From Botryllus schlosseri (lineage: Eukaryota), in NCBI GenBank assembly GCA_051294905.1, contig CM119372.1:25546001-25610000 (forward strand): a stretch of 64,000 nucleotides of DNA, read 5' to 3'. Of this stretch, positions 14,654-61,012 are shown one piece after another; the stretch's first letter is position 1, and each line of letters opens with the position of its first letter. The notes beneath the pieces were generated by a model that ran no database searches, was not told the DNA's origin, and saw only the letters and a program-made list of their open reading frames with translations. The position numbers and the translations under genes were made by a program.

Positions 14654-15248
14654 TATAGATAACTAACCTACGGATAGATGGGCAGCACGAGAGTCACGGT
14701 CGAGTGATGCGACAACGGCAGATTTGTTGTCGTTTCATAGCATGAAACGGGAGCGTAATTGCTAATCCCATAGATGACGACCCGAGCGCTCAAATTAAAT
14801 AAAGTTGATCTTATTTAAAAGCTACAGTCGCGCTGATTCTGATAATATACATTAAATTTACATCAAGGCAATGGAACCACCTCGAAAAAGCCTTCAAAAT
14901 ATGAAAATCGGCATTGTTCTAAACAATCGCAACCACGCACGGACCGTTGTTATGGTCATTGTGCTGCGCCGTTGCAATTGTTTTAGAACAATGCCGATTT
15001 TCATATTTCGAAGGCTATTTCGAGGTGGTTCCATTGCCTTGATGTAAATTTAATGTATATTATCAGAATCAGCGCGACTGTAGCTTTCAAATAAGATCAA
15101 CTTTATTTAATTTGAGCGCTCGGGTCGTCATCTATGGGATTAGCAATTACGCTCCCGTTTCATGCTATGAAGCGACAAATCTGCCGTTGTCGCATCACTC
15201 GACCGTGACTCTCGTGCTGCCCATCTATCCGTAGGTTAGTTATCTATA
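14654..15248. mobile_element. Foldback (near-perfect palindromic) element A, TATAG...CTATA
   Basis: ~275-bp near-identical inverted arms; perfect 7-bp TSD GATTAAC at 14647-14653 and 15249-15255. Confidence 0.92.
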
Positions 15249-15435: not shown

Positions 15436-15949
15436 TGATTTGGGGGGTTCCAAGACCATGAGCAGAATAAAATTTTATCTTTTCGTAATCGGTACAGCAG
15501 CAGCTTTCCATTTATACCCATTTTATCTAATTTACCGGATTAATCGGATTTCAGTACTCGACTATTTTGCCTTGACGCTAAGATTTTAACATTCTCTTTA
15601 CATAGATCCCTTGGGCGGTAGACCGCGGCCTTCCGAAGGGTTCACGGGCCTCAATTTAGGAATTTAGCGTTACACACTTGTTTTGTTGGCTCATGCAGAC
15701 TCATTTCAATACTTGTTGACATTTCTATCTAAAACGTTCAAAAAAATCTATATTTTGGTAGATGCCAAAAATACCAAAACTACGTTATTTTTGGCATTTC
15801 ACAATTTTTATTTTTGGCAGTTTTGGCATTTGGTTCCCGAAATGCTCAAAATAACACGACCTGCACATTGCACATGTACACTGGATGAAAAGAAAGGATA
15901 ACATAAAAGGACTAGCGATGAAAATCAATGTAGCATATGTTTGTATGCA

Positions 15950-24810: not shown

Positions 24811-27236
24811 TTCGGAGTTAAATACTTCCTATATCATTTTCTATGTTTAATTTCTGGCGCGACATCCCGATCTCAAGGTCCCCGCAGATTGAATGATTTC
24901 AACTGATAAACATCACATAAATCCCAAACAAGATTGACATAATTCGGATCACTAGTGTGATTTCAGATTGGCCAATCCAGTTTTAATTATTTCAGTGATG
25001 TGCTTATAAAAACGATTCGCGCGTGCTTACGTAGATTCGTTCCTCCAATCTTGGCCAAATTTACTGGAGCCAGAAAATTTCGCACCCTTATGTTCATCAA
25101 ATGCAATCTAACAGTGTCCGAGCAAGCATAGGCGCCGAGTTACGGAGTGGCGGGGTGGCGGCCACCCCGTGTAATTAGATTAAACGCCCGCCGTCTGCGA
25201 TTTCGAATCATCAGCATTAAAACCCCAGGTGTGTAGCCAGGGAGTTCCTCATTTATAACTAGAAATCCCGTCCTTTTGAAACGCCAATTCACTAATTCGT
25301 ATTATCGATGCTGTGTACTGCAAATTAGCGAGAATCATTTGTATGCAAAATGGGTCATCGATATCTCATGTGCACTATCGGCGGTGGTTTGATTTAGCGC
25401 GTCCTTATGTAGGCTCGCTCCCGTTCGCAGATACACTTTCTCCAAACAGTAAAAATCTCTGAGTGCAATATTGTTTGTGTTTATGTATCTTTTTGATTAA
25501 AACTTATGCCCGCGTCTGAACAAATTGTGCTCTTTGCCATTGCCGAATCTGGGTATTCAGGTATGGCTAGCACACCCTGCAATTGTAATTATTGCAGGTT
25601 CGCGGCATGTCTGAATTTCGTTATCAGCGCAACCTTACCGGCCGATTGTACGCACAGTCCTATAAAATTGATCACTGCTATGTATTTCGCACAGCGTACT
25701 GAGGCTGACTTCAGCAAACTAACGATCCTTATTAGATGTACAAATTCGACCTCATCGTTAGAAACGTAGATTGACGACCAAATGCACGTTCACCTTCTAC
25801 AAATTAAGGTGCATTATTTGCATTTATGAGGGCCGCAAGCTGCGTTTGAAGTATTTTGTGAACCATATTTGTGATAAATATTCTCGGAGCGCAAAGTTGA
25901 ACAATGTTTAATTGTGTGTGCCTGCTAGTTGAAATTTATTCCAGTGCCCTTTATATTAATCCAATTATGCTTTGCGTATACGTAAATCGGGAAATGCAGC
26001 AATGCAGTCAAAATCGATGTTTCAAATAGCAACCAATTGTCGCGATGCGAGCCACTCAATACTAAGTAAAAACCCATTGTGTTGGCGGCAAAGGATAATT
26101 ACTGATTGGCCGCGCGCGTTTGTAATCATAATTCTTGTCTGTCTTTCGTGTTCTAGAATTGTCGCGCCGTGTTACTGCTCAGTCCAGCGACGAATGCCGA
26201 GCGCGCGGCAATCAATGACATAATTTCGCAACCGTCGTAATACGAATCTCGCTAATTGGTCGCGGCCCTCGTAACACTAATAATACAACTTGTTGAATTG
26301 CAACTGAATATTAGCGTCAGAATGGTCATTTCAAAAGGACGGGGTTTTGCGTTTGAAAAGGAGGGGGTTTCGACACCCCCCAGCCTGCGTACCATATCCG
26401 ACCAATTTCTCACCGCTATAACTGGCATCATTTCTAAAACTGTGTGTTTTGGTTTTTGTAGCGGAGGTTATTTGCCGGCTGTGGCCATAAAATGCCTAGG
26501 TGGTAGGTGAAAGGTGGGGGTACTTGAAACAAAGCCTTGATGAAAGATTTCTGTTACAAAAACGAATATTAAACACGTTTTGACAGTAGATTACTCAATA
26601 TAGTAGTAGCCTACGTGGAATATCCAAGTCGCGTGTGTCAGTCGATTATTATTTCATACCGCCGTTCCTGACAAACAAGCCCAGTAAAAAAGACCAAATA
26701 AAGAATGACATATAAACAAGAATAAGAAATAGCGACTTGAAACCAATGAATAAAGAATAACGTCGTAAAGATTGTGATTCGGGCACTAGGCCAAGATGGA
26801 TGCCAGATCAAAAGAGCCACAACTGTTTGTTTCAGCATCCTCCCATGTGTTCCTTACATCGTTGTAAGTGTCTCGCGCAGATGAAAATATAATCTGACGA
26901 TTGATTATATTGATTGATTTATGAATCGAATCGATTCGATAGTCTACAACAGGGGTTCTCAACCCGCAGACGTTTATTTTGCGGCCCGCGACATGTTTCA
27001 TTATGAACGCAATTACTACTGAGTACTGTCGCAATTTGTTACATATGAATTAAGCTGCGTTAGCTCTCTTATCGCACCGTCTCTGTTTCGTTTGAACATA
27101 CTCATTCTTCGATGTGTTCTGGTTTCTTGATATATGCTCGGGTTTCGATTCTGATTGTTTTGAATCGGTATATATTCGGCTCGACTCGGGTTCAAGAGAA
27201 TCCCGCTGCGTAGTACACTTAAGGAGAATGTTTCAC

Positions 27237-27811
27237 TATAGAAATTAAACATGGAACGGCAACGACCGATTTTGCAGCTTCGTTCCGCTTCGCCGGGGCT
27301 GGAGTGGAGAATCGTTTTGCGTAAGCGACTGTAGGATTTCTGGCAATCCAAAAGCTATCTTCCCGAGCGCAGAAATTATGGAATCTGGTCTTGATCGAAA
27401 GCTACTGTTGCACCGACTCCGAAAATATACATTAAAATATTGATCAGGCACTGATCCACCTAGAATCTGTCCTCCAAGTCTGAAATGTCGGCATTGTTTA
27501 GAACAATCGAGTAACCGCAACACAATGACCATAACTCTCCGATTGTTCGAACAATGCCGATATTTCAGACTTTGAGGACGGATTCTAGGTGGATCAGTGC
27601 CTGATAATTATTTTACTTTATATTTCCGGAATCAGTGCAACAGTAGCTTTCGATCAAGACCAGATTCAATAATTTCTGCGCTCGGGAAGATAGCTTTTGG
27701 ATTGCCAGAAATCCTACAGTCGCTTACGCAAAACAATTCTCCACTCCAGCCCCGGCGAAGCGGAACGAAGCTGCAAAATCGGACGTTGCCGTTCCATGTT
27801 TAATTTCTATA
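27237..27811. mobile_element. Foldback element B, TATAG...CTATA
   Basis: ~270-bp near-identical inverted arms; perfect 7-bp TSD GTTTCAC at 27230-27236 and 27812-27818. Confidence 0.92.
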
Positions 27812-27858
27812 GTTTCACTCACCAAGAATGGTTTGAACAGAAACAAGAACAAGGAACG

Positions 27859-28239
27859 TAGGCTTACCATATTTTGGAATTCTAAAAAGAGGACACTTTT
27901 TCAGAAATTTGCAACTTGCAAAACCGGAGTAGAATTCTCAAAAACCGATTAATTTTTCCCACTTTGTGACCGGTTGACTAAAAAAAAAAAGAAAAAAAAA
28001 AGGTCATCTTTTCGCTCAGAGCTAAAATCACCGTTTTTCACTCCTAAATACCCGCCGGAGCTTCACTTCTGTGCTAATTTGCGGCATATCACTCGCAATT
28101 TGCTCTAAATCTGACCTAAATTTTCAAAAAAGAGGACAAAATCTCAAAAAAGAGGACAAAAGGGCGTCCTCCGAGGACACTTTCAAAAAAGTCAAAAAAG
28201 AGGACAAATCCTCTTAAAAGAGGACGTATGGTAAGCCTA
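27859..28239. mobile_element. hAT-type MITE (TAGGCTTACC family)
   Basis: TIRs TAGGCTTACCATA / TATGGTAAGCCTA; perfect 8-bp TSD AAGGAACG; near-identical to 45305-45754. Confidence 0.92.
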
Positions 28240-29205
28240 AAGGAACGAGAAATTGAACGGCGAAAACTGGGTTTGTAACTCTGCGTGGAACAATGAATTT
28301 TCTCCCTCAGATACAAATGGAAACCCGACGTGTCATATTTGTCGAAGAACAGTTGTCGTAACAAAGCGTCGAAGCTTAAAATGATACCACGAGAGTTTGG
28401 CCTGGAGTTAGACATATCGCCTGTTCCGGAACTTAGCAGCAAGGACAACATCACCTGACAAATTTTGAAGCTACAATTGTCTGATTCAACCGTGACCGGA
28501 AGAGTATCAGCTATGACAGTCAATTTTTTGTCGCATGTTCTGAATCACTTTGCGGCGTAGACTACTTTAGCCTAGCATTGGGCGAAGCCACCTACTCCAC
28601 AGACATTGCATATAGCTACTTCTCCGGGTTTATTTTATCAGAGTGGACATGGACATATTTGCAGACGAAAAGCTGGCAGGGCATATACGTGGAGAGGGGA
28701 CCAGCAAAAACATCAACTTGACAAAGCTGACTTTTTAACTATCGGTGCAGGGCTCCAGCCACGAAAGGAAAGGAGAAGGGTTGATTGGTTTGCTCAGAAA
28801 TTATCCCGAACTCCAGATTTCTTCTCATATCACTGAAAGCTCAAAGCGACAATGGTCTCTGTAACGGAAAAGTTACCGTAATTTTTCTCGCTCGAACATT
28901 GAAACACGGGTTTTGGTTCTCTGGTTGAAGGGTTTGAAGGCTTGCACACTGCAACGAATGCAATGCACGCTTCATGAAGGGATTTGCTTGCGCCGCTGGA
29001 ACATGGCATATTCTCACAAGAAGCAGTAACTGCAAACTCACGAACGCTGTCCATAACGACTTTAGAATGCATAAAAATCCACTAAATGCCCGTATGTGAC
29101 TGGTAAATATAGGCTACAGTAGCCTCAATTTAATAGTAGCCCACAGATACACGGCAATAATGGTCTGCGGCCCGCAGCGTTTTCTGCTGTTAAAATGCGG
29201 CCCGT

Positions 29206-29261
29206 GAGAGAGAGATAGAGATATGATATTCTTTTCCAATTTTCGAGTCTTTGGTATGACC
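29206..29261 (-). mobile_element. 3' part of a tRNA-derived SINE split by the LINE
   Basis: Minus strand GGTCATACCAAAGACTCG...AAAAGAATATCATATCTCTATCTCTCTCTC; the tail matches the SINE copy at 59517-59539. Confidence 0.7.
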
Positions 29262-32258
29262 GTTTTAGTGATGTTTATTCAAGTATGTACATAAAATATC
29301 AAAAATTTCATAAAGAAAATCTTTCCCCATCATCGGTTCATCTCGTCTCAGCCGTTGCCGAAGTCGGATTCGTATTCGCTGTCGTGGTAGACGCCGTCGT
29401 AGGTTGGCGCTCGTAGTCGCTCGGCTCATCTCATCGCATCAGTCGATGTCGATTCGTTGTTGCGGTCGTAGTAGGAGTCGTCAGTACTTGGCGCTCGTTT
29501 GCGTGTGTTTTTCATATAAATTTGGTGGAGTGGTGAGGGGTGGGGTAGGAATATGGTAGGGTTAGGGGTGGATAGGGTAGGGGGGTTTGTTGTTTAGGGT
29601 TGAGGTAAAGAGGGATGGGATGGGAGGTTTGGGGGGGGATAGGTGGTAGGTGGATTGGTTGGGTTTTGTGGGTCGATAAATACAATACAATTTATCGCGC
29701 GAGCGTTTAATGGGCTCGCTTAAATTATTCGGTATATTTTACTTCTTATATCGTTGATGCGTTCGTCAATATTTTGGGCGTATTCATTTTGTATGTCGAG
29801 TGCATTTTTCCATTCCCACACAAGGGTTTTCACGTTCATAAAAGCTTGTATTATAGTCGGAGCTTGCGGTCCGTCGTAGACGTTGCGTATGATCTCGTCT
29901 GGTGTAGCGTCAATAGTCGTTTGCAGGTCGTTCTCGAGATCCTGTATTACAAGAGAGAACAGTTTTTTGTAAGTTGCACATTCTGCGAAAGTGTGGCGCA
30001 GAGTGTCTTCGGCGTGTTGGCAGAATTTGCATTTGTTTTTCAAGTAGGCATCTTTTCGTCGTACCCAGCCTGCGTTGGTTTTTCTGGAGCCTGTAAAGTA
30101 GCTCTCAGTGTTAATGCGATACGAAATCTCACGTTTCTTGTTGTCAATGTGGTCTTTGATATTGGGTTGGTATAGCCATATCTCTTTCCAGTCCGCCATG
30201 CGGCTTCCTCCTTGTTGCGTCTTCGTTTTAACAAGGATCTGGTACATTTCTTTCTGGCGTAGTTCTTGTATATCTTGTGATTGGCTTTTAATTACGTCGA
30301 AGATTTTCTTTTCCTTCTTCCATTCCTCCGTCAATGTATTTCTGTGAGGGTATAGGTTGTTGTATAAATTGCAATTTATATCTCTCACCTTCGTTGTTAG
30401 ATTGTATATCGCTTCTGCATGCCAGATATCAATCGGGTTTTCGAGTCGACTAAGTTGTTGTAGTCTTTTTGCTCTCTTTGCTTGTGTTGCAGATTCGATA
30501 TCTGGCATATCAATCCCTCCTTCTGGCTTAGGTCTGATCAGTTGTATTCTGCTTTTCTGCTCGAGCTTCTCAGGACTCCACAGTAGGCCGAAGACGAGGC
30601 GTTCGAGTTGCTTGAGCTTGTCGTCTGGAATTTGCTTGTTGGCATATGTATAAGTTATTTTGCTAATTATATATGCCTTAATCGCCGTTATTTTACCAAT
30701 CCAAGAAAGCCGTTTTGATTTAATATGCCTTACGCTTTTCTCGACTCCTTGCCAGAGTCTGTCGAAGTTCATTTGCAGTTCGCTTTCACCGTGGTATAAG
30801 CCCAGTATCTTAATTACTGGCTTCAGCATATGTGCGTGCGCAGTTTTTTGCAGTCTGATACGCGATTTTTCGTTCAGTGGTAGGATTTCCGTCTTGCCTG
30901 TGTTGATATCTTGACCTGTCACTCTATGCAGGCTTTGATATTCGTTAAGGACTGCTGTAATAGAGTCAGTTGTTCTTAGATACAGTGTGACGTCATCAGC
31001 AAATTGGTCTAATTTATGCTCTATCCCGCCGATTCGGATAACTCTGATGTTGTCGTTAGTGCATAGTTTGTGGGCTAGAGGGTCTGCGCTAATCGCGTAT
31101 AGTGTCATACTTAAAGGACATCCTTGTCTAATGCCCCTCGTACAATTTACATTTGCTGCTTGGAGGCCGTTAACCTCGAGGGTCGCAATAGGATTATCAT
31201 ATATGGCTTTGATCACTTTAAGAGTTTCTCTCTTGACGGGCAGTTTATCAAGCACTTTGAACAGCATTTGGTGATCGACCTTATCAAAGGCTTTTCTTGC
31301 GTCTATGGTCATTATATAACCTTCCAAAGGTTTTTCTTGATGATAATTAACAATTGCACTCACATTGTTGTGTATCACGTCCATTTGTCTTCCGGGAATT
31401 CCCGCTTTCTGTGTCATGTTGATGTTGCTCGAAATATCCTCAACCAGTCTGTTGTTGAGAATTTTCGCCATTATTTTGTAGTCCGTGTTTAACAGCGAAA
31501 TGGGTCGCCAGTTCGCTAAATCCTTTTTGTCCTTTCCTTTGTGAATCAAAATAATTTTAGCACGTTTCCAACTATGCGGTATGTTTCCGTATATTAGCGC
31601 GTTGTTTATGATTTCTGTTAATCTCGAGCCAATGTTTTTCCACATTGCAAGGTAGAATTCCACTGTTAGGCCGTCGAACCCCGGCGACCTTTCCCTGTTC
31701 ATTGCTTTCAGTATTTGTAATATTTCGCTAGATTGTATTACCGATGTTTGTTCATTGTCTTTCCCGTGCATGCAGTCTTGCTTATACGATGATAGATATT
31801 CGTCTTGATCGTACGAATTAGTGCCGTCGTGTCGGGTCCACAATTCTGTGTAAAATTGTTCAATCTGGTTAGCAATAATATTACGGTCAGTCGTTACCGT
31901 TCCATCTCTGAGCTGTAGTTCTTTAAGCTCGATCTTGCGCCGTCTGGTCTTCAATTCTTGCCAAAATTGTCTCGTCGTGTTAGATTCACCTTCGCAACGG
32001 TCAATTTTGGTTAACATGCGCAATTTTCCTTTTACCCTCTGATACGTTATCTGAGGGTCACAGGTTTGATATTTGTCTATTTCATATCTCTTGCTTACGT
32101 TGGCAATTCTATCTTTTAGTCTGTCCCACCATTGTTGTATTCCGTGGCAGTGTTGAATATTATTCTCCTCAAAGCTTATGAGATTAGATATTATATCTCG
32201 GTACACGTCATCTCGCAAAAGGTCATTATTACACTTCCAATTTTTTCTTCCCCATAGA
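29262..32258 (-). mobile_element. 5'-truncated Tx1/L1-clade non-LTR retrotransposon
   Basis: Intact RT ORF; ~460-nt 3'UTR; AATAAA (plus-strand tttatt 29274-29279) then a short A run; flanked by GGTCACAC/GGTCATAC (8-bp TSD, 1 mismatch). Confidence 0.88.
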
Positions 32259-32332
32259 GTGTGACCCGGCCGGGAATCGAACCCACGACCAACCGCTCGA
32301 AAAGCCGGACGCATAACCATCACACTATTCAT
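29720..32332 (-). CDS. Tx1/L1-type ORF2 reverse transcriptase lacking the APE endonuclease (870-aa open frame; first ~25 codons SINE-derived)
   Basis: SPGFDGLTVEFY, NWRPISLLNTDYKI, DARKAFDKVDH, GIRQGCPLS, QFADD, EGGIDMPD and the C-terminal CKFC...H...C zinc knuckle; no stops. Confidence 0.9.
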   Translation of the reverse strand: MNSVMVMRPAFRAVGRGFDSRPGHTLWGRKNWKCNNDLLRDDVYRDIISNLISFEENNIQHCHGIQQWWDRLKDRIANVSKRYEIDKYQTCDPQITYQRVKGKLRMLTKIDRCEGESNTTRQFWQELKTRRRKIELKELQLRDGTVTTDRNIIANQIEQFYTELWTRHDGTNSYDQDEYLSSYKQDCMHGKDNEQTSVIQSSEILQILKAMNRERSPGFDGLTVEFYLAMWKNIGSRLTEIINNALIYGNIPHSWKRAKIILIHKGKDKKDLANWRPISLLNTDYKIMAKILNNRLVEDISSNINMTQKAGIPGRQMDVIHNNVSAIVNYHQEKPLEGYIMTIDARKAFDKVDHQMLFKVLDKLPVKRETLKVIKAIYDNPIATLEVNGLQAANVNCTRGIRQGCPLSMTLYAISADPLAHKLCTNDNIRVIRIGGIEHKLDQFADDVTLYLRTTDSITAVLNEYQSLHRVTGQDINTGKTEILPLNEKSRIRLQKTAHAHMLKPVIKILGLYHGESELQMNFDRLWQGVEKSVRHIKSKRLSWIGKITAIKAYIISKITYTYANKQIPDDKLKQLERLVFGLLWSPEKLEQKSRIQLIRPKPEGGIDMPDIESATQAKRAKRLQQLSRLENPIDIWHAEAIYNLTTKVRDINCNLYNNLYPHRNTLTEEWKKEKKIFDVIKSQSQDIQELRQKEMYQILVKTKTQQGGSRMADWKEIWLYQPNIKDHIDNKKREISYRINTESYFTGSRKTNAGWVRRKDAYLKNKCKFCQHAEDTLRHTFAECATYKKLFSLVIQDLENDLQTTIDATPDEIIRNVYDGPQAPTIIQAFMNVKTLVWEWKNALDIQNEYAQNIDERINDIRSKIYRII
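32259..32330 (-). mobile_element. tRNA-derived SINE head (Pol III A and B boxes)
   Basis: Minus strand TAGTGTGATGG (A box, 32317-32327) and GGTTCGATTCC (B box, 32273-32283); 25/27 identity to the head at 59685-59711. Confidence 0.8.
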
Positions 32333-34297
32333 ACACCATTACACCACACGAGGAAAGTTGAGAACCCCTGGTCTACAAGATTCATTTTCTATATCTTTTC
32401 AGTGTATCACTCTTTCCACATAGGCTATTTTAAAATGATTAAAGTAAATCGCGAAGAAATCTAAAATATGGTAGCGAATGTGGAATATATCGTAGAAAAT
32501 AATATTGATGTTTTGTTTCACTTTCCTTATCTACAAGAAACTGACGCCGTTCCGGATATCCAATCCGGTGTTCGGATCCGAACCTACTGCATGTTGTTTT
32601 ATGAAGAAATCAATGGAGAACTAATGCCTCCACAGAATGTAGATCTCTAATGCTTCTATGTAGAGTTTCTATTAACACACAAATGATTCAGATATAGAAC
32701 TATAATGTCGACATCATACTTCATATCCATGGGACTATTTACTGTAAGCGTACAAGTATGACACGTGATCGAACGTAAAACGCATCTCTCTGAGTTCTGC
32801 AATTCAAGATTTCGATTCCCGTTTCAGTCTGGGTTGGGTAAATGTAGTTTTGGGCTTTCATCGAGGCTGGGGTGTGTCTGTCAGTAATATGAGGTTGTTC
32901 TACGTATTACATGCATGGCTGTACCATTTTCCATCATGGGTTGGCGTTTTTTTTTTCGAATTAAGAGATTGAGTTGGCGTTGTTTATGGTATCACGGTGT
33001 TCACGACCGTGTATGTTCTTAGCGCGTCTTGGGCCTTGTTGAAACGAAAGTATAATTGCTAGCTGACACCTTCGTTTCAGCCGTACTATATTCATACTTG
33101 CTATCGTTTCTACATATTCTAATGAGAGGATCCATCATTTGGGTTCTTGGAAATGTGACGTCATATATGTAAACAAGTGTTCTAGGATTCGTAGGGCGTT
33201 GAACGGGACACGAAACACCCAAATAAATGCAATACCCTGTATTGAAATCGCCATTCGGGTGGATGTTAGTTGAGTATAGGTCTGTTCTGTACCTTGTTAT
33301 GTAATGACTGTTAATCGAACTTTTGACCAATAATATCCTATCATAGTCGCCTATTCACCTCACCGGTTGAAATTGAAACTAGGTTTGAATGACATAAGCT
33401 TGACCAATTAAATCTGAATGTAAAATATACCTGGTGTGTGGTGCTAACTGCTCTGAATTTATGTTCTTGAATCTGGAAATGATTCGGCACAAAAATGCTA
33501 CGATATTCCAAAATGCCAGACTTTGCTCAAATAGAATGTCATTTCATTGCCTTATGCACTGAAGAGTTATCCATACATTAGTAAAAAGCTGTTCAATGTG
33601 ATAGTCATGCCCGAGTTAGTCTGTACAGCTAACCTCTGTGAATTGCTATATTACTTCTGTGTCACTGGTCTTATTTTGCCTGTATCCGATTCATCATTGG
33701 TCACTAGTATTATCTGTTCTTAATACACTAAACAAATACTAACAGAAATTCTATCACAAATCTTGATTAAATCGCATGAACTCTGTAAAGGTCCTGCTTT
33801 GTTTTATATTTAATTGTAACAGTTAGCACCGTAACTCAAAGATGTTATGGTACCTACAGTTGGCTATATTGATCTTGTTGCTCCAGATTTAATTGTTCCG
33901 AACACATATTGGCCTAGTACACGAAATTAATGGCAATATATATGTATATGTAACTGACAGAAATTGAACTGATGTGATGAATATATGTAAAGCCGCAAAC
34001 TCATCTCGTGTTAATGAACTAGTGTAGTCTGCTTTTCTCTAAACACCCTTTTATATGCTACCATGCGTATTGTCTTCGTCTTTCATTGAACCCTTACCTC
34101 ACAATGATGACCGATCTATAGCTCCGCCCTGAGCGTCGTCGTATCAGTATTCTTTTGCATGATTGATAGGATGACGTATTGTGGTAAAGTGCATGATCGG
34201 ATTGGCGAATTTTCTACAAATTCTTTGATGATATCTCAATGAATTGTGTGAAATTTTCAGAATAACGTTCTTAATAAGAGTAAAATCTTTCGTTGAA

Positions 34298-34461: not shown

Positions 34462-36514
34462 GTATGTATTGAAGATTGCATAGATCTGAGGTGCACGATA
34501 AAATGCCAACTTCATTGAAGGTTTCGGCCTGCCAATGGACGATCCCACGACCTTCTTCGGATCGTCACCCAGTTTCAACGAACTGTCGATTATGACTATG
34601 CAATTAGGTGTCTCACGAGTATGGATTCAATCCAATTGGCATTTCTTAATAAGAATATGCAACAGAAATTGGTGAGCAGAATATATGCCATAATTTCTGC
34701 TGTTGGATTTTACGAGCACTGTGTTACAGGCATTTGAAACCCACCTCATGAGATATCTGGCGATGTTTGACCCGGTGTGCGGATACAATATCAGAAAATG
34801 TACACGGTACTCCATGGAAGGAGTGGGCGCTAAAATTGTAGCCACTCAGGAGTGGCTGAAACATGATAAGGTTCCGCTTCTCATCGGCTGCATCGCGGAG
34901 TTGACAAAAGAAGAGGAGGGACAATTGTTACGTCCCGGTGAAAATGATTTCAGCGTCATGTTCTCTACTAGGAAAAATTGCGCTCAGCTCTGGCTAGGCC
35001 CGGCGTCCTTCATTAACCACGGTAAGAACTTTTGAGATATACCTACTGGTTTGTTTAGCAGAAATTTGGCCAACAAGACATGGAGCTTTTTGTTTTTTCA
35101 TGCATCCTTACTTTAATATGTCAGTCAGTACCCATAACATATTGTCCTGTGCCCAACATCTGTTTTTGGAATTGATTTGTTGAGCATGGTACGTCCATTG
35201 TTTAAAATGAAAATCTCAGTTGATAATCTCAAACTGAGCAACGGTAGTTCTGCCAAACACCTATATATGTGTTCAAATCAGACCATGGCATGCTATATGA
35301 TAACTATTATTGAATTCTCAGTCTGGTGATAAACAAAGTGTGTTGGGGCCTCCGCTCCGGGCCCCTAATACCAGACACCCCCCTTTATCATGCATATCTC
35401 ACTAGTCAGTTCGCAAGTCCTCATTTACGGACAAAAATGTGTAGGAAGATATTTGCGTATTTTGGTTATTATGATATGTTGCCTTGTTCTTTTTTGGGTG
35501 ATTTTTTACCCCTTTATATTCCAGATTGTCGACCTAATTGTTGCTTTGTGCCCACCGGCCGAGACACAGCGTGTGTGAAGGCTCTGCGGGACATTGCGTG
35601 CGGAGAAGAGCTGACCTGCTACTACGGCGATTCATTTTTTGGCGAAAAGAATTGCCTTTGCGAATGCGAGACCTGCGAAAGGTGACGTCACCCATATGAT
35701 TGGATCGGTCTTGTACCAAATATTTCTAGTCTTGTTATTGTTCAGGCGAAGAACCGGCGCTTTCAAGGAGCAAGATTCTGAGGGCAGCCCACGCAAGATT
35801 TTTTCCAGTAAATACGGTTTGAGAGAAACGGAGAAACGATTAAAAAGACTGAAACGGTCGAAAGACACGTCGCCCTCGACTTTGAGTAACTCTGATCCTT
35901 ATGAGAAAGGCGAGCACTCGCCGTTGAGCGATTACGAGTACATTCCATCGCCGAGCGAGTGCGGCAGTTACGACTCAGATTGCAATTCCAACAGCTCGTT
36001 TTTATCAACGACAAGCGCTTTTAGTGATAAGAACTCGAAAATGCCGCCGAAAGAGAGTAATAAATCTAAGAGAAGGAGGGAGCCTTCGCCCGAAGAGAGT
36101 TCCAAAGCGATAAGGAAGGGCATTTTTGAAATGGACTTTACGAAACGAAATACGGAGCGGAATTATGTGATCGGCAACGCTCCGAATTTTCTCGACGATA
36201 GCAAGCACGCGCCCGCCATGGTCACGCCCGCTATCGGGCAGGAATCGACAATGCCGCCGAGGCGAAAACGGAAATGCGCAGCGCCCGTTAAACTATCCTC
36301 GTATTCCGCGAGGCCCCGCGAGCAGGCAAACGATATCATGGTGAGGAAGTTGAATAACCCGATCGTGCCCGTGATCATGCCGTTGAAAATTAGCATCCGA
36401 CGGCCTTTGAACTGCAAGCACGCGCCGCCGTACGCCGAGATTATTAAAACTCCCTATGGCGTGTACGCGGAGGATCCGAGTCGTTCGCAAAGACGTCGGA
36501 GCCCGAGGTTTTGA
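34298..36514 (+). CDS. KMT5B: Histone-lysine N-methyltransferase SUV4-20 (KMT5B/KMT5C family, H4K20me2/3), 5 coding exons, ~510 aa
   Basis: Exons 34298-34461, 34521-34671, 34730-35021, 35525-35681 and 35746-36514 join in phase (1533 nt). Motifs: [96 protein letters not shown]. Confidence 0.95.
34521..34671 (+). CDS. KMT5B: SUV4-20 coding exon 2
   Basis: FRPANGR...CLTS...[10 protein letters not shown]; donor gtgag. Confidence 0.88.
34730..35021 (+). CDS. KMT5B: SUV4-20 coding exon 3 (SET domain)
   Basis: [13 protein letters not shown]...LGPASFINH; donor gtaag. Confidence 0.93.
35525..35681 (+). CDS. KMT5B: SUV4-20 coding exon 4 (SET C-terminus/post-SET)
   Basis: DCRPNC...CECETCE. Confidence 0.93.
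35746..36514 (+). CDS. KMT5B: SUV4-20 last coding exon
   Basis: RRTGAF...[11 protein letters not shown], then a Ser-rich/basic tail to TGA. Confidence 0.9.
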
Positions 36515-43876: not shown

Positions 43877-44277
43877 CAGAAATGAGCGGATTAGATATTT
43901 CTATGTCCTAATCCAATCCAAATCCGAAGCTTCAAATTCAAATCCTAATCCTAATCTGGTTCAAACTTGGAATTCCAGTTTGAATTCCACTTGGAAAGTT
44001 ATAGCCCACATCTTATGACAATAAAATTCTGTAAAAAGAAATATAACGCTCAATAGGGGCCAAAGTATATGAAGTAATAAATTTGCAAACTTTGTAAAAT
44101 CGAGGTAGGACGAGAAACTTTGTCGTCATTCGCCACAGGACACCAATCTCCCCGAAAATCGGTAAATCCAATCCTACTTCACTGAAAAAAATCTCAAATC
44201 CTAATCCAATCCAAATCCGCGAAAATTTCACAAATCCGGGTTTCCTAAATCCTAATTCTAATTCATGCTCATCTCTG
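43877..44277. mobile_element. AATCC-repeat MITE
   Basis: CAGAAATGAGC...GCTCATCTCTG ends; CCAATCCAAATCC arrays. Confidence 0.7.
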
Positions 44278-44333
44278 CCTCGCCACAATTCCTGTACTCC
44301 TTCCAAACGACCTACTCTTGCCAGTCCACCTAC

Positions 44334-44831
44334 CAGGGTTGTAATGACTCGAGTCGCGATTTTTTGGTTACTCGACTTGACTCGAGTCCATTTTTGTATT
44401 GACTTGGCTTGTATTCGAGTCATTGTGCAGGACTCGAGACTAGGACGACCGAGACTGACATTTCATTGCAACTTCGAAGAATAGTAAAGTTACCCATTAT
44501 TGGTCTATTAGTCCTGATACTTGGACAATAGGGCTAAAAGCTGTCAAGACAGAGGAAAAATACTACATTATGAATGTGAGCCATTCTATATCACTCGAGC
44601 AGAGTTGGAAAAAGTGGATTGAACCGGATTGAACTGATAACTGAACAGTGAACATAATGACTTGGACTCGGACTCGAGTCGAAACACTAGGACTCGGACT
44701 CAACACTCTCCGACTTGGACTCGGACTTGACTGGGTGGTGAATTAAATGTAACTCGACTTGACTCGAGTCAAAACGATGAAAAAGAAATTGAATTGTGAC
44801 TCGGAACCTTGTGACCTGGTTTACAACCCTG
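44334..44831 (+). mobile_element. CAGGGTTGTAA-family MITE
   Basis: TIRs CAGGGTTGTAA / TTACAACCCTG; GACTCGAGTC arrays; paralog at 57568-58163. Confidence 0.8.
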
Positions 44832-46389: not shown

Positions 46390-46686
46390 AGTCTATATGA
46401 CTTGCACCGTATAACTAAGGCGATTATTTTGGACCTAACAAGCGAAACAGTTTGCTCTGAAATTTGAGCATAATATTTCACGCTACGGGTGAAGTTTGCT
46501 ACGGCTCTCAATGTTGGTTATCGCCTTCCTATAGGTACCGAACCAAACAAACGATTGTCAAGAAGCCTTTGAAAATTAGGTAGGGATCTACCACTTAGGT
46601 AGAAATCCTGAAGTCGACCTCAGTCGGACTCGAACCCGCAACCTATTGCAGTCCAGCTGTGGAACGTACCACTACGCTATCTCGCC
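46390..46686 (-). mobile_element. tRNA-derived SINE (second family)
   Basis: Minus strand GGCGAGATAGCGTAGTGGT (A box)...GGGTTCGAGTCC (B box) followed by a non-tRNA body; 3' boundary uncertain. Confidence 0.65.
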
Positions 46687-47321: not shown

Positions 47322-47411
<90 letters not shown>

Positions 47412-47412: not shown

Positions 47413-49292
47413 CCTAAGACGGAGAAATTTAGCGGCTGTTTTCACGCAGAGTCTTGCATTTTAGTCATTCTTTGCGTGACGGTTGGTCAATATAATTTTT
47501 GTAGCTGTTCCGTGGTTCATGTGCGGAGTTTCAGGCCATAAAGTCGATCATACGACCATTTCCTCAGCAAAACGTTTAGAATTATCCAACTATAGGCATA
47601 CCGTGTTTTCAGTTGCCTTCATAATCACGCAAGACGTTAGTGTAGTATCCAGTACAACTTATCTGTCTATTTCACACCCTGTTAAATACGACGTTGTAAT
47701 ACGTGGAAATGCGCTATACTGTCAAATATTCCTTAAGCAGGCACTGAGGTGAAAAAGGTACATCATATAACCAATCTTCTAATCCTTATGCTGCTCAAAG
47801 TATGTATCTCATGCAAGTGATGTGGAAACGCAAACCCAGCTCTCTGCACCGTGCTTATGTCAGTTTGCAGGTTTTTACGGTGCACCAGGGATGGCCAACC
47901 TCTTTGCAATTCACGGCCGCATTTCGGATTGCTAATGTACCCTACGGCCGCACTCCAAGGCATAGTCCTAATGAAATAACTTAACGCCAAATGTCCATGT
48001 TCAACTGTCCAGTGTCCATGTCCCTTTCCGGTGAGCTCGGGACTAATCTATTTATTCATATCGGCTTGCTATACACGCCGATGTCGCGAGTGGTCATGTT
48101 GTGAATAAATTCGGGGACTCGATATGGGCGCGAAATATTTACAAATTCACGAATGTGGATACTTTACACCTCACTGCAGAAATGAGCGGATTAGATATTT
48201 CTATGTCCTAATCCAATCCAAATCCGAAGCTTCAAATTCAAATCCTAATCCTAATCTGGTTCAAACTTGGAATTCCAGTTTGAATTCCACTTGGAAAGTT
48301 ATAGCCCACATCTTATGACAATAAAATTCTGTAAAAAGAAATATAACGCTCAATAGGGGCCAAAGTATATGAAGTAATAAATTTGCAAACTTTGTAAAAT
48401 CGAGGTAGGACGAGAAACTTTGTCGTCATTCGCCACAGGACACCAATCTCCCCGAAAATCGGTAAATCCAATCCTACTTCACTGAAAAAAATCTCAAATC
48501 CTAATCCAATCCAAATCCGCGAAAATTTCACAAATCCTGAGAGAGAGAGCCTAAGACGGAGAAATTTCGGGGCTGTTTTCACGCAGAGTCTTGCATTTTC
48601 GTCATTCTTTGCGTGACGGTTGGTCAATATAATTTTTGTAGCTGTTCCGTGGTTCATGTGCGGAGTTTCAGGCCATAAAGTCGATCATACGACCATTTCC
48701 TCAGCAAAACGTTTAGAATTATCCAACTATAGGCATACCGTGTTTTCAGTTGCCTTCATAATCACGCAAGACGTTAGTGTAGTATCCAGTACAACTTATC
48801 TGTCTATTTCACACCCTGTTAAATACGACGTTGTAATACGTGGAAATGCGCTATACTGTCAAATATTCCTTAAGCAGGCACTGAGGTGAAAAAGGTACAT
48901 CATATAACCAATCTTCTAACCCTTATGCTGCTCAAAGTATGTATCTCATGCAAGTGATGTGGAAACGCAAACCCAGCTCTCTGCACCGTGCTTATGTCAG
49001 TTTGCAGGTTTTTACGGTGCACCAGGGATGGCCAACCTCTTTGCAATTCACGGCCGCATTTCGGATTGCTAATGTACCCTACGGCCGCACTCCAAGGCAT
49101 AGTCCTAATGAAATAACTTAACGCCAAATGTCCATGTTCAACTGTCCAGTGTCCATGTCCCTTTCCGGTGAGCTCGGGACTAATCTATTTATTCATATCG
49201 GCTTGCTATACACGCCGATGTCGCGAGTGGTCATGTTGTGAATAAATTCGGGGACTCGATATGGGCGCGAAATATTTACAAATTCACGAATG
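47402..49292 (+). repeat. Direct duplication (47402-48155 and 48539-49292) separated by a copy of 43854-44237
   Basis: Near-identical 754-bp units at offset 1137; the spacer matches 43854-44237 at offset 4300. Confidence 0.93.
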
Positions 49293-59516: not shown

Positions 59517-59712
59517 AGAGAGAGAGATGATATTTTTTCGCCTGCACCGTCGAGATGCTTTGACGACGGAGATGCGATACGACCTTTAGTAAGGTCATCT
59601 AGGCCTAGTCTACACCCCATTTTTCTCAATGCTATCCGTGGATGCTGGTCTGACCCCGTCGGCGAATCCACTGCCTACCTATTAAAAAGCCGGACGCATC
59701 ACCATTACACTC
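59517..59712 (-). mobile_element. tRNA-derived SINE, internally deleted, with (TC)n tail
   Basis: Head AGTGTAATGGTGATGCGTCCGGCTTTT and tail AAAAAATATCATCTCTCTCTCT match the two halves flanking the LINE. Confidence 0.7.
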
Positions 59713-59961
59713 GGTAAGACTGTCATATTCTTAGTAAAAAGTGCTGATACGGCTTCGATCCGACTCCGGCCGTATCAGAAAAAGTACTGATCCGGCTCCG
59801 GTCAAAAATGAGAAAATCCGGCCGGATATCCAATGCGGGTCCGGTCCATGCTCCGGGCCCTTCTATCTATGCGGTCTCTATGGTCTAGCTCAGGGGTGGC
59901 CAATTGGCCAACCTTTTTGCTATGCATTTATTCACCTTTCATCGGGATTGTTGGTATATTG

Positions 59962-61012
59962 CAGTGGTCGGGAACCTATAGCTCGCGAGCCATATATGGC
60001 TCTTTTGGGTATAAGATATGACTCTTTGCCAAATTTTTATTTTTGTATCGAATTGATCAATATTGCAGCAACTTGTTAGAAAATTTGCCTCACGGCCAGA
60101 ATAATTATTCTCGTGACAGTATAAACATGTCTTTGAGAGGTAACGACAATGTCGTCTTCAGGTTTATGGGGCTCGGACCCCTCTTTGCAAAATCCTCAAA
60201 TTGTAATAGCCTAACTGATGCGACGGCGACCAATATCACTCGCGAATTCGATGTAGGCTACCCGACTCGAAATTTGATTGATTGGATTGCGTGATACGTT
60301 GATTGATCAAAGAGAATAGCAGAGAGAGCGACGTCCATATGACAACGACACATTGTTTTCCTGATCTACGGCACGAAATCAGCTGCCGTGGACGTTACAT
60401 TCACAATTACAAACTCGAATTACAAACAATGTCATAGCTATCCACGTTCTTGGTTGGTAAGTAGTTCTGTAGTACCGGCGATAAAATGTGGCGTGCAGCG
60501 CAACGTATGTGTTACCGCCGAATGCATAAAGAATTGAGAATCCGATCAGTATTTAGATTTTCGGAGTCAATGCGACAGCTAGATTCGATTAATGTCAGTT
60601 ATAATAAATTCTAAGCTATTTACGATGAATTGCGTTATCGGTGGTGAGGCTTGGTCCGCCTGTGCCTTACCTCTCGTTTCGCGCTTTATTTCCGAATAAT
60701 AAATATGCATGCACCTACGCCTGTGATCATGGGTTCTCACATTTAAAGGAGCATCACGACGAACCTACGTTCTCGTAACTCAAGTTTCGCGCTTAAATAA
60801 GGCAACCAGCATGATTAGTACTAGTTTATAGAGAGAAAATGTGGCGCACACGATGAATCCCATGTATAGTGAGTTCGAATTAGTGCTACTATGACGTCAC
60901 GAATTTCCAATTGTGACATAACAGTTGATTGACATGGATGGCTCTTTGAGACTTAAAATGGAAAAAATAGGGCCAATACGGCTCTTCGGACAAAAAAGGT
61001 TCCCGACCCCTG
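59962..61012. mobile_element. hAT-type non-autonomous element
   Basis: TIRs CAGTGGTCGGGAACC / GGTTCCCGACCCCTG; GGCTCT(T/C) subterminal motifs. Confidence 0.72.

Follow-up and report, generated by a model that had tools for sequence, protein, structure and literature searches.

LINEs of the Tx1 clade possess an ORF1 with zinc knuckles. Several Tx1 families are known to target other repeats: Tx1L inserts in Tx1D, Tx1-Mar in Mariner-N4_AMi, Tx1-9_AMi in Harbinger, and both Tx1-8_Crp and Tx1-4_AMi in LTR elements; U2 and microsatellites are further targets (PMC4494074). Dewa occupies the tRNA-Leu spacer, Mutsu 5S and Keno U2 (PMC3706591, PMC4494074). According to Kojima, a family counts as target-specific when one sequence type is found in more than 20% of its flanks (PMC4494074). 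The available text of that study has no SINE among the targets of its Tx1 families, and the available text of another source, which gives 'other TEs' among the targets of non-LTR elements, does not mention SINEs (PMC8869645); nor was a SINE-targeting Tx1/L1 family found in the portion of the literature covered, which took in few subscription papers and no Repbase Reports. SINEs of the MetaSINE superfamily have a tRNA head, conserved among members, that is directly followed by the Meta-domain, a segment of 66 bp matching its consensus at 61-86% (PMC4824008). The available text of this paper contains no mention of ascidian, Ciona or tunicate.

In a window of 64,000 nucleotides from Botryllus schlosseri (contig CM119372.1), repeats lie nested at three levels: a hAT-like DNA element received a SINE, which in turn received a LINE. 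The nesting of the LINE in the SINE had been recognized in the original prediction, which missed the hAT-like level around the SINE. This outermost, decayed element spans 26950-32370 (no strand assigned) and measures ~2.3 kb without the SINE and LINE insert. Its ends, 26950-26963 and 32357-32370, are inverted repeats of 14 bp that start with CAGGGG, and it is flanked by a perfect 8-bp target-site duplication, the left copy of which (26942-26949, plus strand) equals the right copy (32371-32378, plus strand). Short inverted ends together with an 8-bp duplication make up the hAT pattern. In contrast to hAT-superfamily transposons, with which it shares the inverted ends from CAGGGG and the 8-bp duplication, the element gave no transposase match: five short frames of 47-86 aa from it had no Pfam match of any kind, the element itself being decayed. 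Public sequencing runs, compared at the level of contigs, support the outer level. Sixteen runs were found, 13 of which contain part of the stretch, and four were compared; runs X5 and X6 have small word shares (0.14). In all four, joints from 29205 to 32348, 32351 or 32355 omit SINE and LINE together. The hAT-like element also carries a palindromic repeat (27235-27813, no strand assigned; 264-nt arms, 95% complementary), likely a separate insertion, so that its spot appears to collect insertions. A relative of the palindromic repeat lies at 14781-15124.

The SINE lies on the minus strand, its head at 32262-32347 and its remainder at 29206-29256. Compared with consensus sequences, the B box (32273-32283) has no mismatch, the A box (32317-32327) two, and a second A-box-like word (32336-32346) one, which bears out the predicted tRNA-like head with A and B boxes. 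The remainder opens with ~20 nt from the start of a Meta-like domain, followed by an internal deletion, a terminal motif and a (TC)n tract, and the tail does run down to 29206, as originally described. The other boundary of the insert, placed at 32332, had to be moved: the insert starts near 32347. A joined form of the SINE, 29256 to 32262 without the LINE, occurs in all four compared runs (3, 1, 2 and 4 contigs), and the ten SINE joint rows listed for run X1 add up to 34 contigs. The two flanks thus belong to one SINE, as had been claimed. In the same run, a contig (record 8) agrees without any difference with the unique flank and with the SINE head as far as 32299. No duplication was seen around the SINE insert, and nothing therefore suggests that the LINE family mobilized the SINE. 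The LINE sits just after the B box, a position noticed after the fact.

For the unity of the two flanks, the original prediction had relied on an independent SINE copy at 59517-59712 with the same head and the same tail. This copy (59517-59715, minus strand) is a second, diverged SINE with a related head, the same last 22 nt and a different body. Its head matches that of the split SINE at 75% over 65-68 nt (E 1-2e-7), the match to 59651-59711 being likewise 75%, and 9 of 10 bases are shared across the junction of head and tail. Of the tail, only the terminal 22 nt agree, at 19/22 positions with E 0.04 and in sequence of low complexity, and ~100 nt of the copy's body are missing from the split SINE. 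The claim of a common head thus stands and that of a common tail fails beyond the last 22 nt; judged from its sequence, this copy alone would be weak evidence that the two flanks form one element.

By sequence, the split SINE is MetaSINE-like: it has a head with A and B boxes that matches published MetaSINE heads, and a Meta-like start follows the tRNA head immediately, as in the superfamily (PMC4824008, as far as available). Across the junction, 46 of 50 bases, counted by hand, agree between head plus remainder and BivaMD-SINE1_AsNo from the supplement of that paper, and loose ends of other SINE copies contain a 13-base word also present in BivaMeta-SINE1_HyCu (PMC4824008). In the split SINE the start of the Meta-domain matches, and further pieces of the domain match within loose ends, 30 letters long, that stem from other SINE copies. 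Unlike described MetaSINEs in the available text, the split copy lacks most of the domain: the Meta-like start reaches ~29236, which is also as far down as SINE contigs match, and the loss begins ~25 bases past the LINE site. The LINE site is accordingly the boundary between tRNA head and Meta-domain of a MetaSINE-like element.

The LINE occupies 29262-32261 (3,000 bp, minus strand), and the original description of a 3-kb element ending with AATAAA proved accurate. Its ORF2 remnant (29720-32260, minus strand) comprises 846 aa without stops; the reverse transcriptase (RT) lies at ~30881-31528 and has an FADD motif (RVT_1, E 1.2e-28), and a C-terminal zf-RVT match (E 0.003) is below the cut-off. 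The remnant aligns at 53% with its relative P0001, in which Exo_endo_phos covers residues 2-194. Since the alignment opens at P0001 residue 219, just past the endonuclease, the LINE copy is 5'-truncated; it lacks ORF1 and endonuclease, and a copy with this content would not be autonomous. The APE endonuclease, absent here, is present in the nearest relatives P0001, P0002 and P0004. The 3' UTR (29262-29719, minus strand) contains a C-rich tract and an imperfect duplication with a spacing of 84 bp; after AATAAA (29274-29279) only four A and one C follow. No second copy of the LINE is found in the 64-kb window.

Assignment of the LINE to the L1 group of non-LTR retrotransposons holds, as judged from its predicted RT, and agrees with the original classification at this level. 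The best relatives of solved structure are human LINE-1 ORF2p (197-200 bits; PDB 8sxt, 8uw3), compared to 47-73 bits for R2; all 10 matches of the structure-relative search are L1 or R2. With human LINE-1, the element shares the RT with FADD motif, 5' truncation, a duplication and AATAAA at the 3' end; it differs in its GC-rich site and in having no long poly(A), and its full-length relatives are shorter (~1070-1180 aa) than human ORF2p (1275 aa). Of the target-site duplication and A-rich 3' end of the L1 group, the element has a 5-bp duplication and AATAAA, but its end consists of only four A and one C.

Of 890 homologues, the best 120 are almost all unnamed, and names were obtained for 1 of 10 clusters. 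A quick IQ-TREE of the RT, midpoint-rooted without outgroup, had 80 rows, namely the query and 79 of 212 eligible proteins: the first 55 eligible homologues, the named rows and every fifth of a further set. The tree left out P0270, the single protein that carries the name TX1 in its source record, and had no named Tx1 or vertebrate L1 reference among its rows. P0221 forms a long branch. The query groups with P0001, P0002 and P0004 (SH-aLRT 99) inside a 51-row lineage with short ORF2 (SH-aLRT 97), whose full-length members have ~1070-1180 aa. In this quick midpoint-rooted tree the lineage is apart from echinoderm, mollusc and lancelet rows of ~1290 aa, and also from an L1-like group that scores higher against human L1 (P0049 347 bits, P0117 258 bits). 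The RT is thus placed in a short-ORF2 lineage of its own, in a tree without Tx1L, Keno, Kibi/Koshi, Dewa and Mutsu references, so that the Tx1 membership given in the original prediction stays putative.

The junctions of the LINE define a 5-bp target-site duplication, GGTCA, with its 5' copy at 32262-32266 and its 3' copy at 29257-29261 (both minus strand). SINE contigs cease matching at 32262, and the five letters at the joint fit either side. Other LINE copies match to 32261 and then continue as LINE: record 16 of run X5 has 168 further letters past this position, and a loose end of run X8 upstream of it is, by hand translation, in register with the end-of-endonuclease segment of P0001. As these copies match through 32261, CAC at 32259-32261 is LINE sequence, and together with the five letters fitting both sides this makes GGTCA the duplication. 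The 8-bp duplication with one mismatch originally proposed is therefore rejected, its extra AC being a coincidence. The filled site as such rests on the assembly of the window, with no contig across the LINE-SINE junctions among the 32 pieces listed of 8,588.

Does the LINE seek out the SINE? In the original prediction, a family targeting SINEs or tRNA 3' ends was thought possible, and differing flanks of other copies were named as the sign of a chance insertion. Joints and ends were seen in part (24 of 540 loose ends, 15 of 71 joints and 32 of 8,588 pieces listed), and one other LINE 3' end is visible among the listed pieces. This lone 646-nt contig (record 18 of run X6, a run that bears the label of another organism) matches the LINE at 29260-29486 with 11 other letters and 6 gaps. 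In place of the SINE it then carries 425 letters of different sequence, where a normal SINE would have prolonged the match by ~20 bases. None of the other visible LINE ends, numbering one, is thus in a SINE, and the flanks do differ in the sole case seen (n = 1). Set against Kojima's threshold, the data here are one SINE site, itself selected, and a single other visible 3' end, which is not in a SINE. With one filled site against one LINE end with another flank, a SINE- or tRNA-3'-end-targeting family is not supported. The same contig excludes that the tail with (TC)n is the LINE's own 3' end, since it has the LINE end without the tail and the joined SINE is present in all four runs. None of the 15 joints listed of 71 connects a SINE head with a LINE truncated elsewhere. 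That loose ends do not pile up at the 3' end of the LINE was set aside as uninformative, since even the SINE, which is far commoner, has only 37 contigs listed at its 5' end. A tRNA gene as the target was also rejected: in the 64-kb window, ARAGORN found no tRNA gene, and the two Rfam matches are both far below the gathering score and lie elsewhere.

Scans of sequence collections gave no second example. The junction pattern, in which the SINE continuation comes directly after a poly(A) signal, gave 5 matches in viral collections, 46 in genomes and 1 in metagenomes, of which none had a LINE ORF by tblastn, and blastn with the SINE head was empty for all 58 loci; these matches are treated as chance. 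The exact 24-base word of the LINE end was absent from the metagenomes and genomes of these mostly prokaryotic collections. Locus scans based on protein retained 0 of 29 viral and 6 of 31 genome candidates, the latter all at 29-32% identity and uninformative for flanks. The null scans carry little weight because the LINE family itself is absent from those collections. Summed contig depth in run X1, a rough measure that is no copy number, was ~2.6e5 for the SINE head, 7e3-2e4 for the LINE 3' UTR, ~2.7e3 for the ORF and 22.8 for the unique flank; this suggests that the SINE is very abundant and that the LINE has of the order of a hundred copies or more. If 64 kb contain 1-2 such SINEs, each 200-300 bp long, and the LINE has 50-300 copies, the probability that chance alone puts at least one LINE into a SINE is 0.14-0.94; the 95% interval of the SINE count widens this to 0.04-1.0.

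Insertion sites of mammalian L1 are T/A-rich. The site in the SINE is GC-rich and is a boundary conserved among MetaSINEs, both of which count against a landing without any preference. On balance, the locus is probably the outcome of ordinary nested insertion, in which the SINE was not a required site, because the joined SINE and hAT forms are found in all four runs, the flank in run X6 differs, the SINE is abundant and the junction scans were empty. By the established mechanism, the APE endonuclease of an active LINE copy would have nicked the SINE DNA; in target-primed reverse transcription, the RT would have begun at the 3' terminus of the RNA and copied 3 kb before it stopped, and the 5-bp duplication would stem from a second nick made at a distance of 5 bp. 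The SINE may then be a frequent bystander rather than a dedicated target, considering the one other flank and its abundance. A mere artefact, either a template-switch chimera of SINE RNA onto the LINE 5' end or an assembly join of repeats, is very improbable: the lack of a junction contig among the listed pieces fits it, as does a SINE copy whose 5' end is odd and whose body has a deletion, but the SINE resumes in exact register behind a 5-bp duplication, and the outer ends and their 8-bp duplication match across 5.4 kb, neither of which a template switch or false join would produce.

The two remaining explanations grant the LINE some specificity. The family might prefer a short sequence around GG-TCA, or its target might be a different multicopy sequence, for instance a gene for 5S, tRNA or snRNA; the SINE would then be a look-alike, hit above chance without being the main target. 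This is unlikely, though not far-fetched: it would suit the GC-rich site, and record 18 of run X6 still matches in the three bases CGG that follow the A run. These could belong to the end of the LINE itself or to a short target motif common to both sites; the CGG match may equally be chance, however, and two sites are too few for a motif. Still less probable is a preference of the family for the boundary of tRNA head and Meta-domain, as Tx1L has for Tx1D and Tx1-Mar for Mariner-N4_AMi. Precedent exists in the repeat-targeting Tx1 families (PMC4494074, as available), and there is one clean insertion with duplication at this boundary, which is both conserved and very abundant; on the other hand, the sole other LINE 3' end visible among the 32 pieces listed of 8,588 is outside a SINE, no joint connects the head to a different truncation point among the 15 listed of 71, and the viral, genome and metagenome collections yielded no second junction. 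The LINE resembles the repeat-targeting families in being an APE-type L1-group element in an interspersed repeat with a short duplication, whereas their specificity derives from many flanks (>20%; PMC4494074, available text), set against a single site and a single counter-example for the present LINE. With Dewa, Mutsu and Keno it shares the insertion beside small-RNA-derived sequence; in contrast to these families, as described in the available texts, its site is a decayed SINE copy, without a gene array and without a tRNA gene in the window.

The locus gives the insertion order for four repeat families. The LINE represents a family from a short-ORF2 lineage of which little has been described, and the SINE a MetaSINE-like family in a host unnamed in the available text of PMC4824008. 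It is improbable, but conceivable, that the endonuclease of this L1-group lineage prefers the head/Meta boundary of MetaSINEs, where a SINE domain that is ancient and found across animals would offer a safe landing site at which an insertion splits the promoter head from the body. Were a preference for the SINE boundary real, the targets known for site-specific L1/Tx1 elements would come to include SINEs; as repeat targeting is already known, this would be a variant rather than a new kind, in which a LINE preys on a conserved SINE domain by means of a new endonuclease specificity.

On the minus strand, an ATG in the head of the SINE that is split by the LINE shares its reading frame with the ORF2 remnant, and the reverse transcriptase (RT) frame starting at this ATG (29720-32332, minus strand) encodes 870 aa without an endonuclease. 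Within the SINE head lies a T4 run (32300-32303, minus strand), at which an early stop of Pol III is likely to be expected; the 870-aa frame is thus probably incidental. The 5' end of the split copy (32329-32347, minus strand) is itself atypical and carries a second A-box-like word; contigs from other SINE copies, assembled in public runs, part from the window copy at 32328. A tRNA-like head differing from that of the split SINE, whose A and B boxes are both perfect and spaced by 32 nt, is found at 46630-46680 (minus strand); this second head probably represents another SINE family.

The hAT-like element, the outermost host of the SINE and the LINE, contains a palindromic repeat at 27235-27813 (arms of 264 nt, complementarity 95%). 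Relatives of this repeat occupy 14781-15124 of the window, and shorter matches to it occur close to 15474-15511 and to 60551-60592; inspection of the ends of the repeat revealed no clear duplication. Elsewhere, a long identical peptide is common to two frames, 44013-44484 and 48313-48684, implying a duplicated segment, and a long (TC)n run (47322-47400) lies between them. Two host gene pieces are present on the plus strand: an SRF-TF (MADS-box) exon, MEF2-like by eye (690-1109), and a SET-domain gene that by eye resembles Suv4-20/KMT5B (34694-36514).

The 3' UTR of the LINE harbours an imperfect tandem duplication (29333-29498; spacing 84 bp, identity about 74%), adjoined by a long C-rich tract. 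A protein-based scan reached loci (L052-L056) with LINE-like RT of about 30% identity, located on short contigs within bacterial MAGs and likely to be host contamination. Homologous proteins in the range P0001-P0056, nearly all without names in the protein collection, represent a large lineage of L1-group elements, well supported in the tree and marked by a short ORF2 of about 1070-1180 aa.
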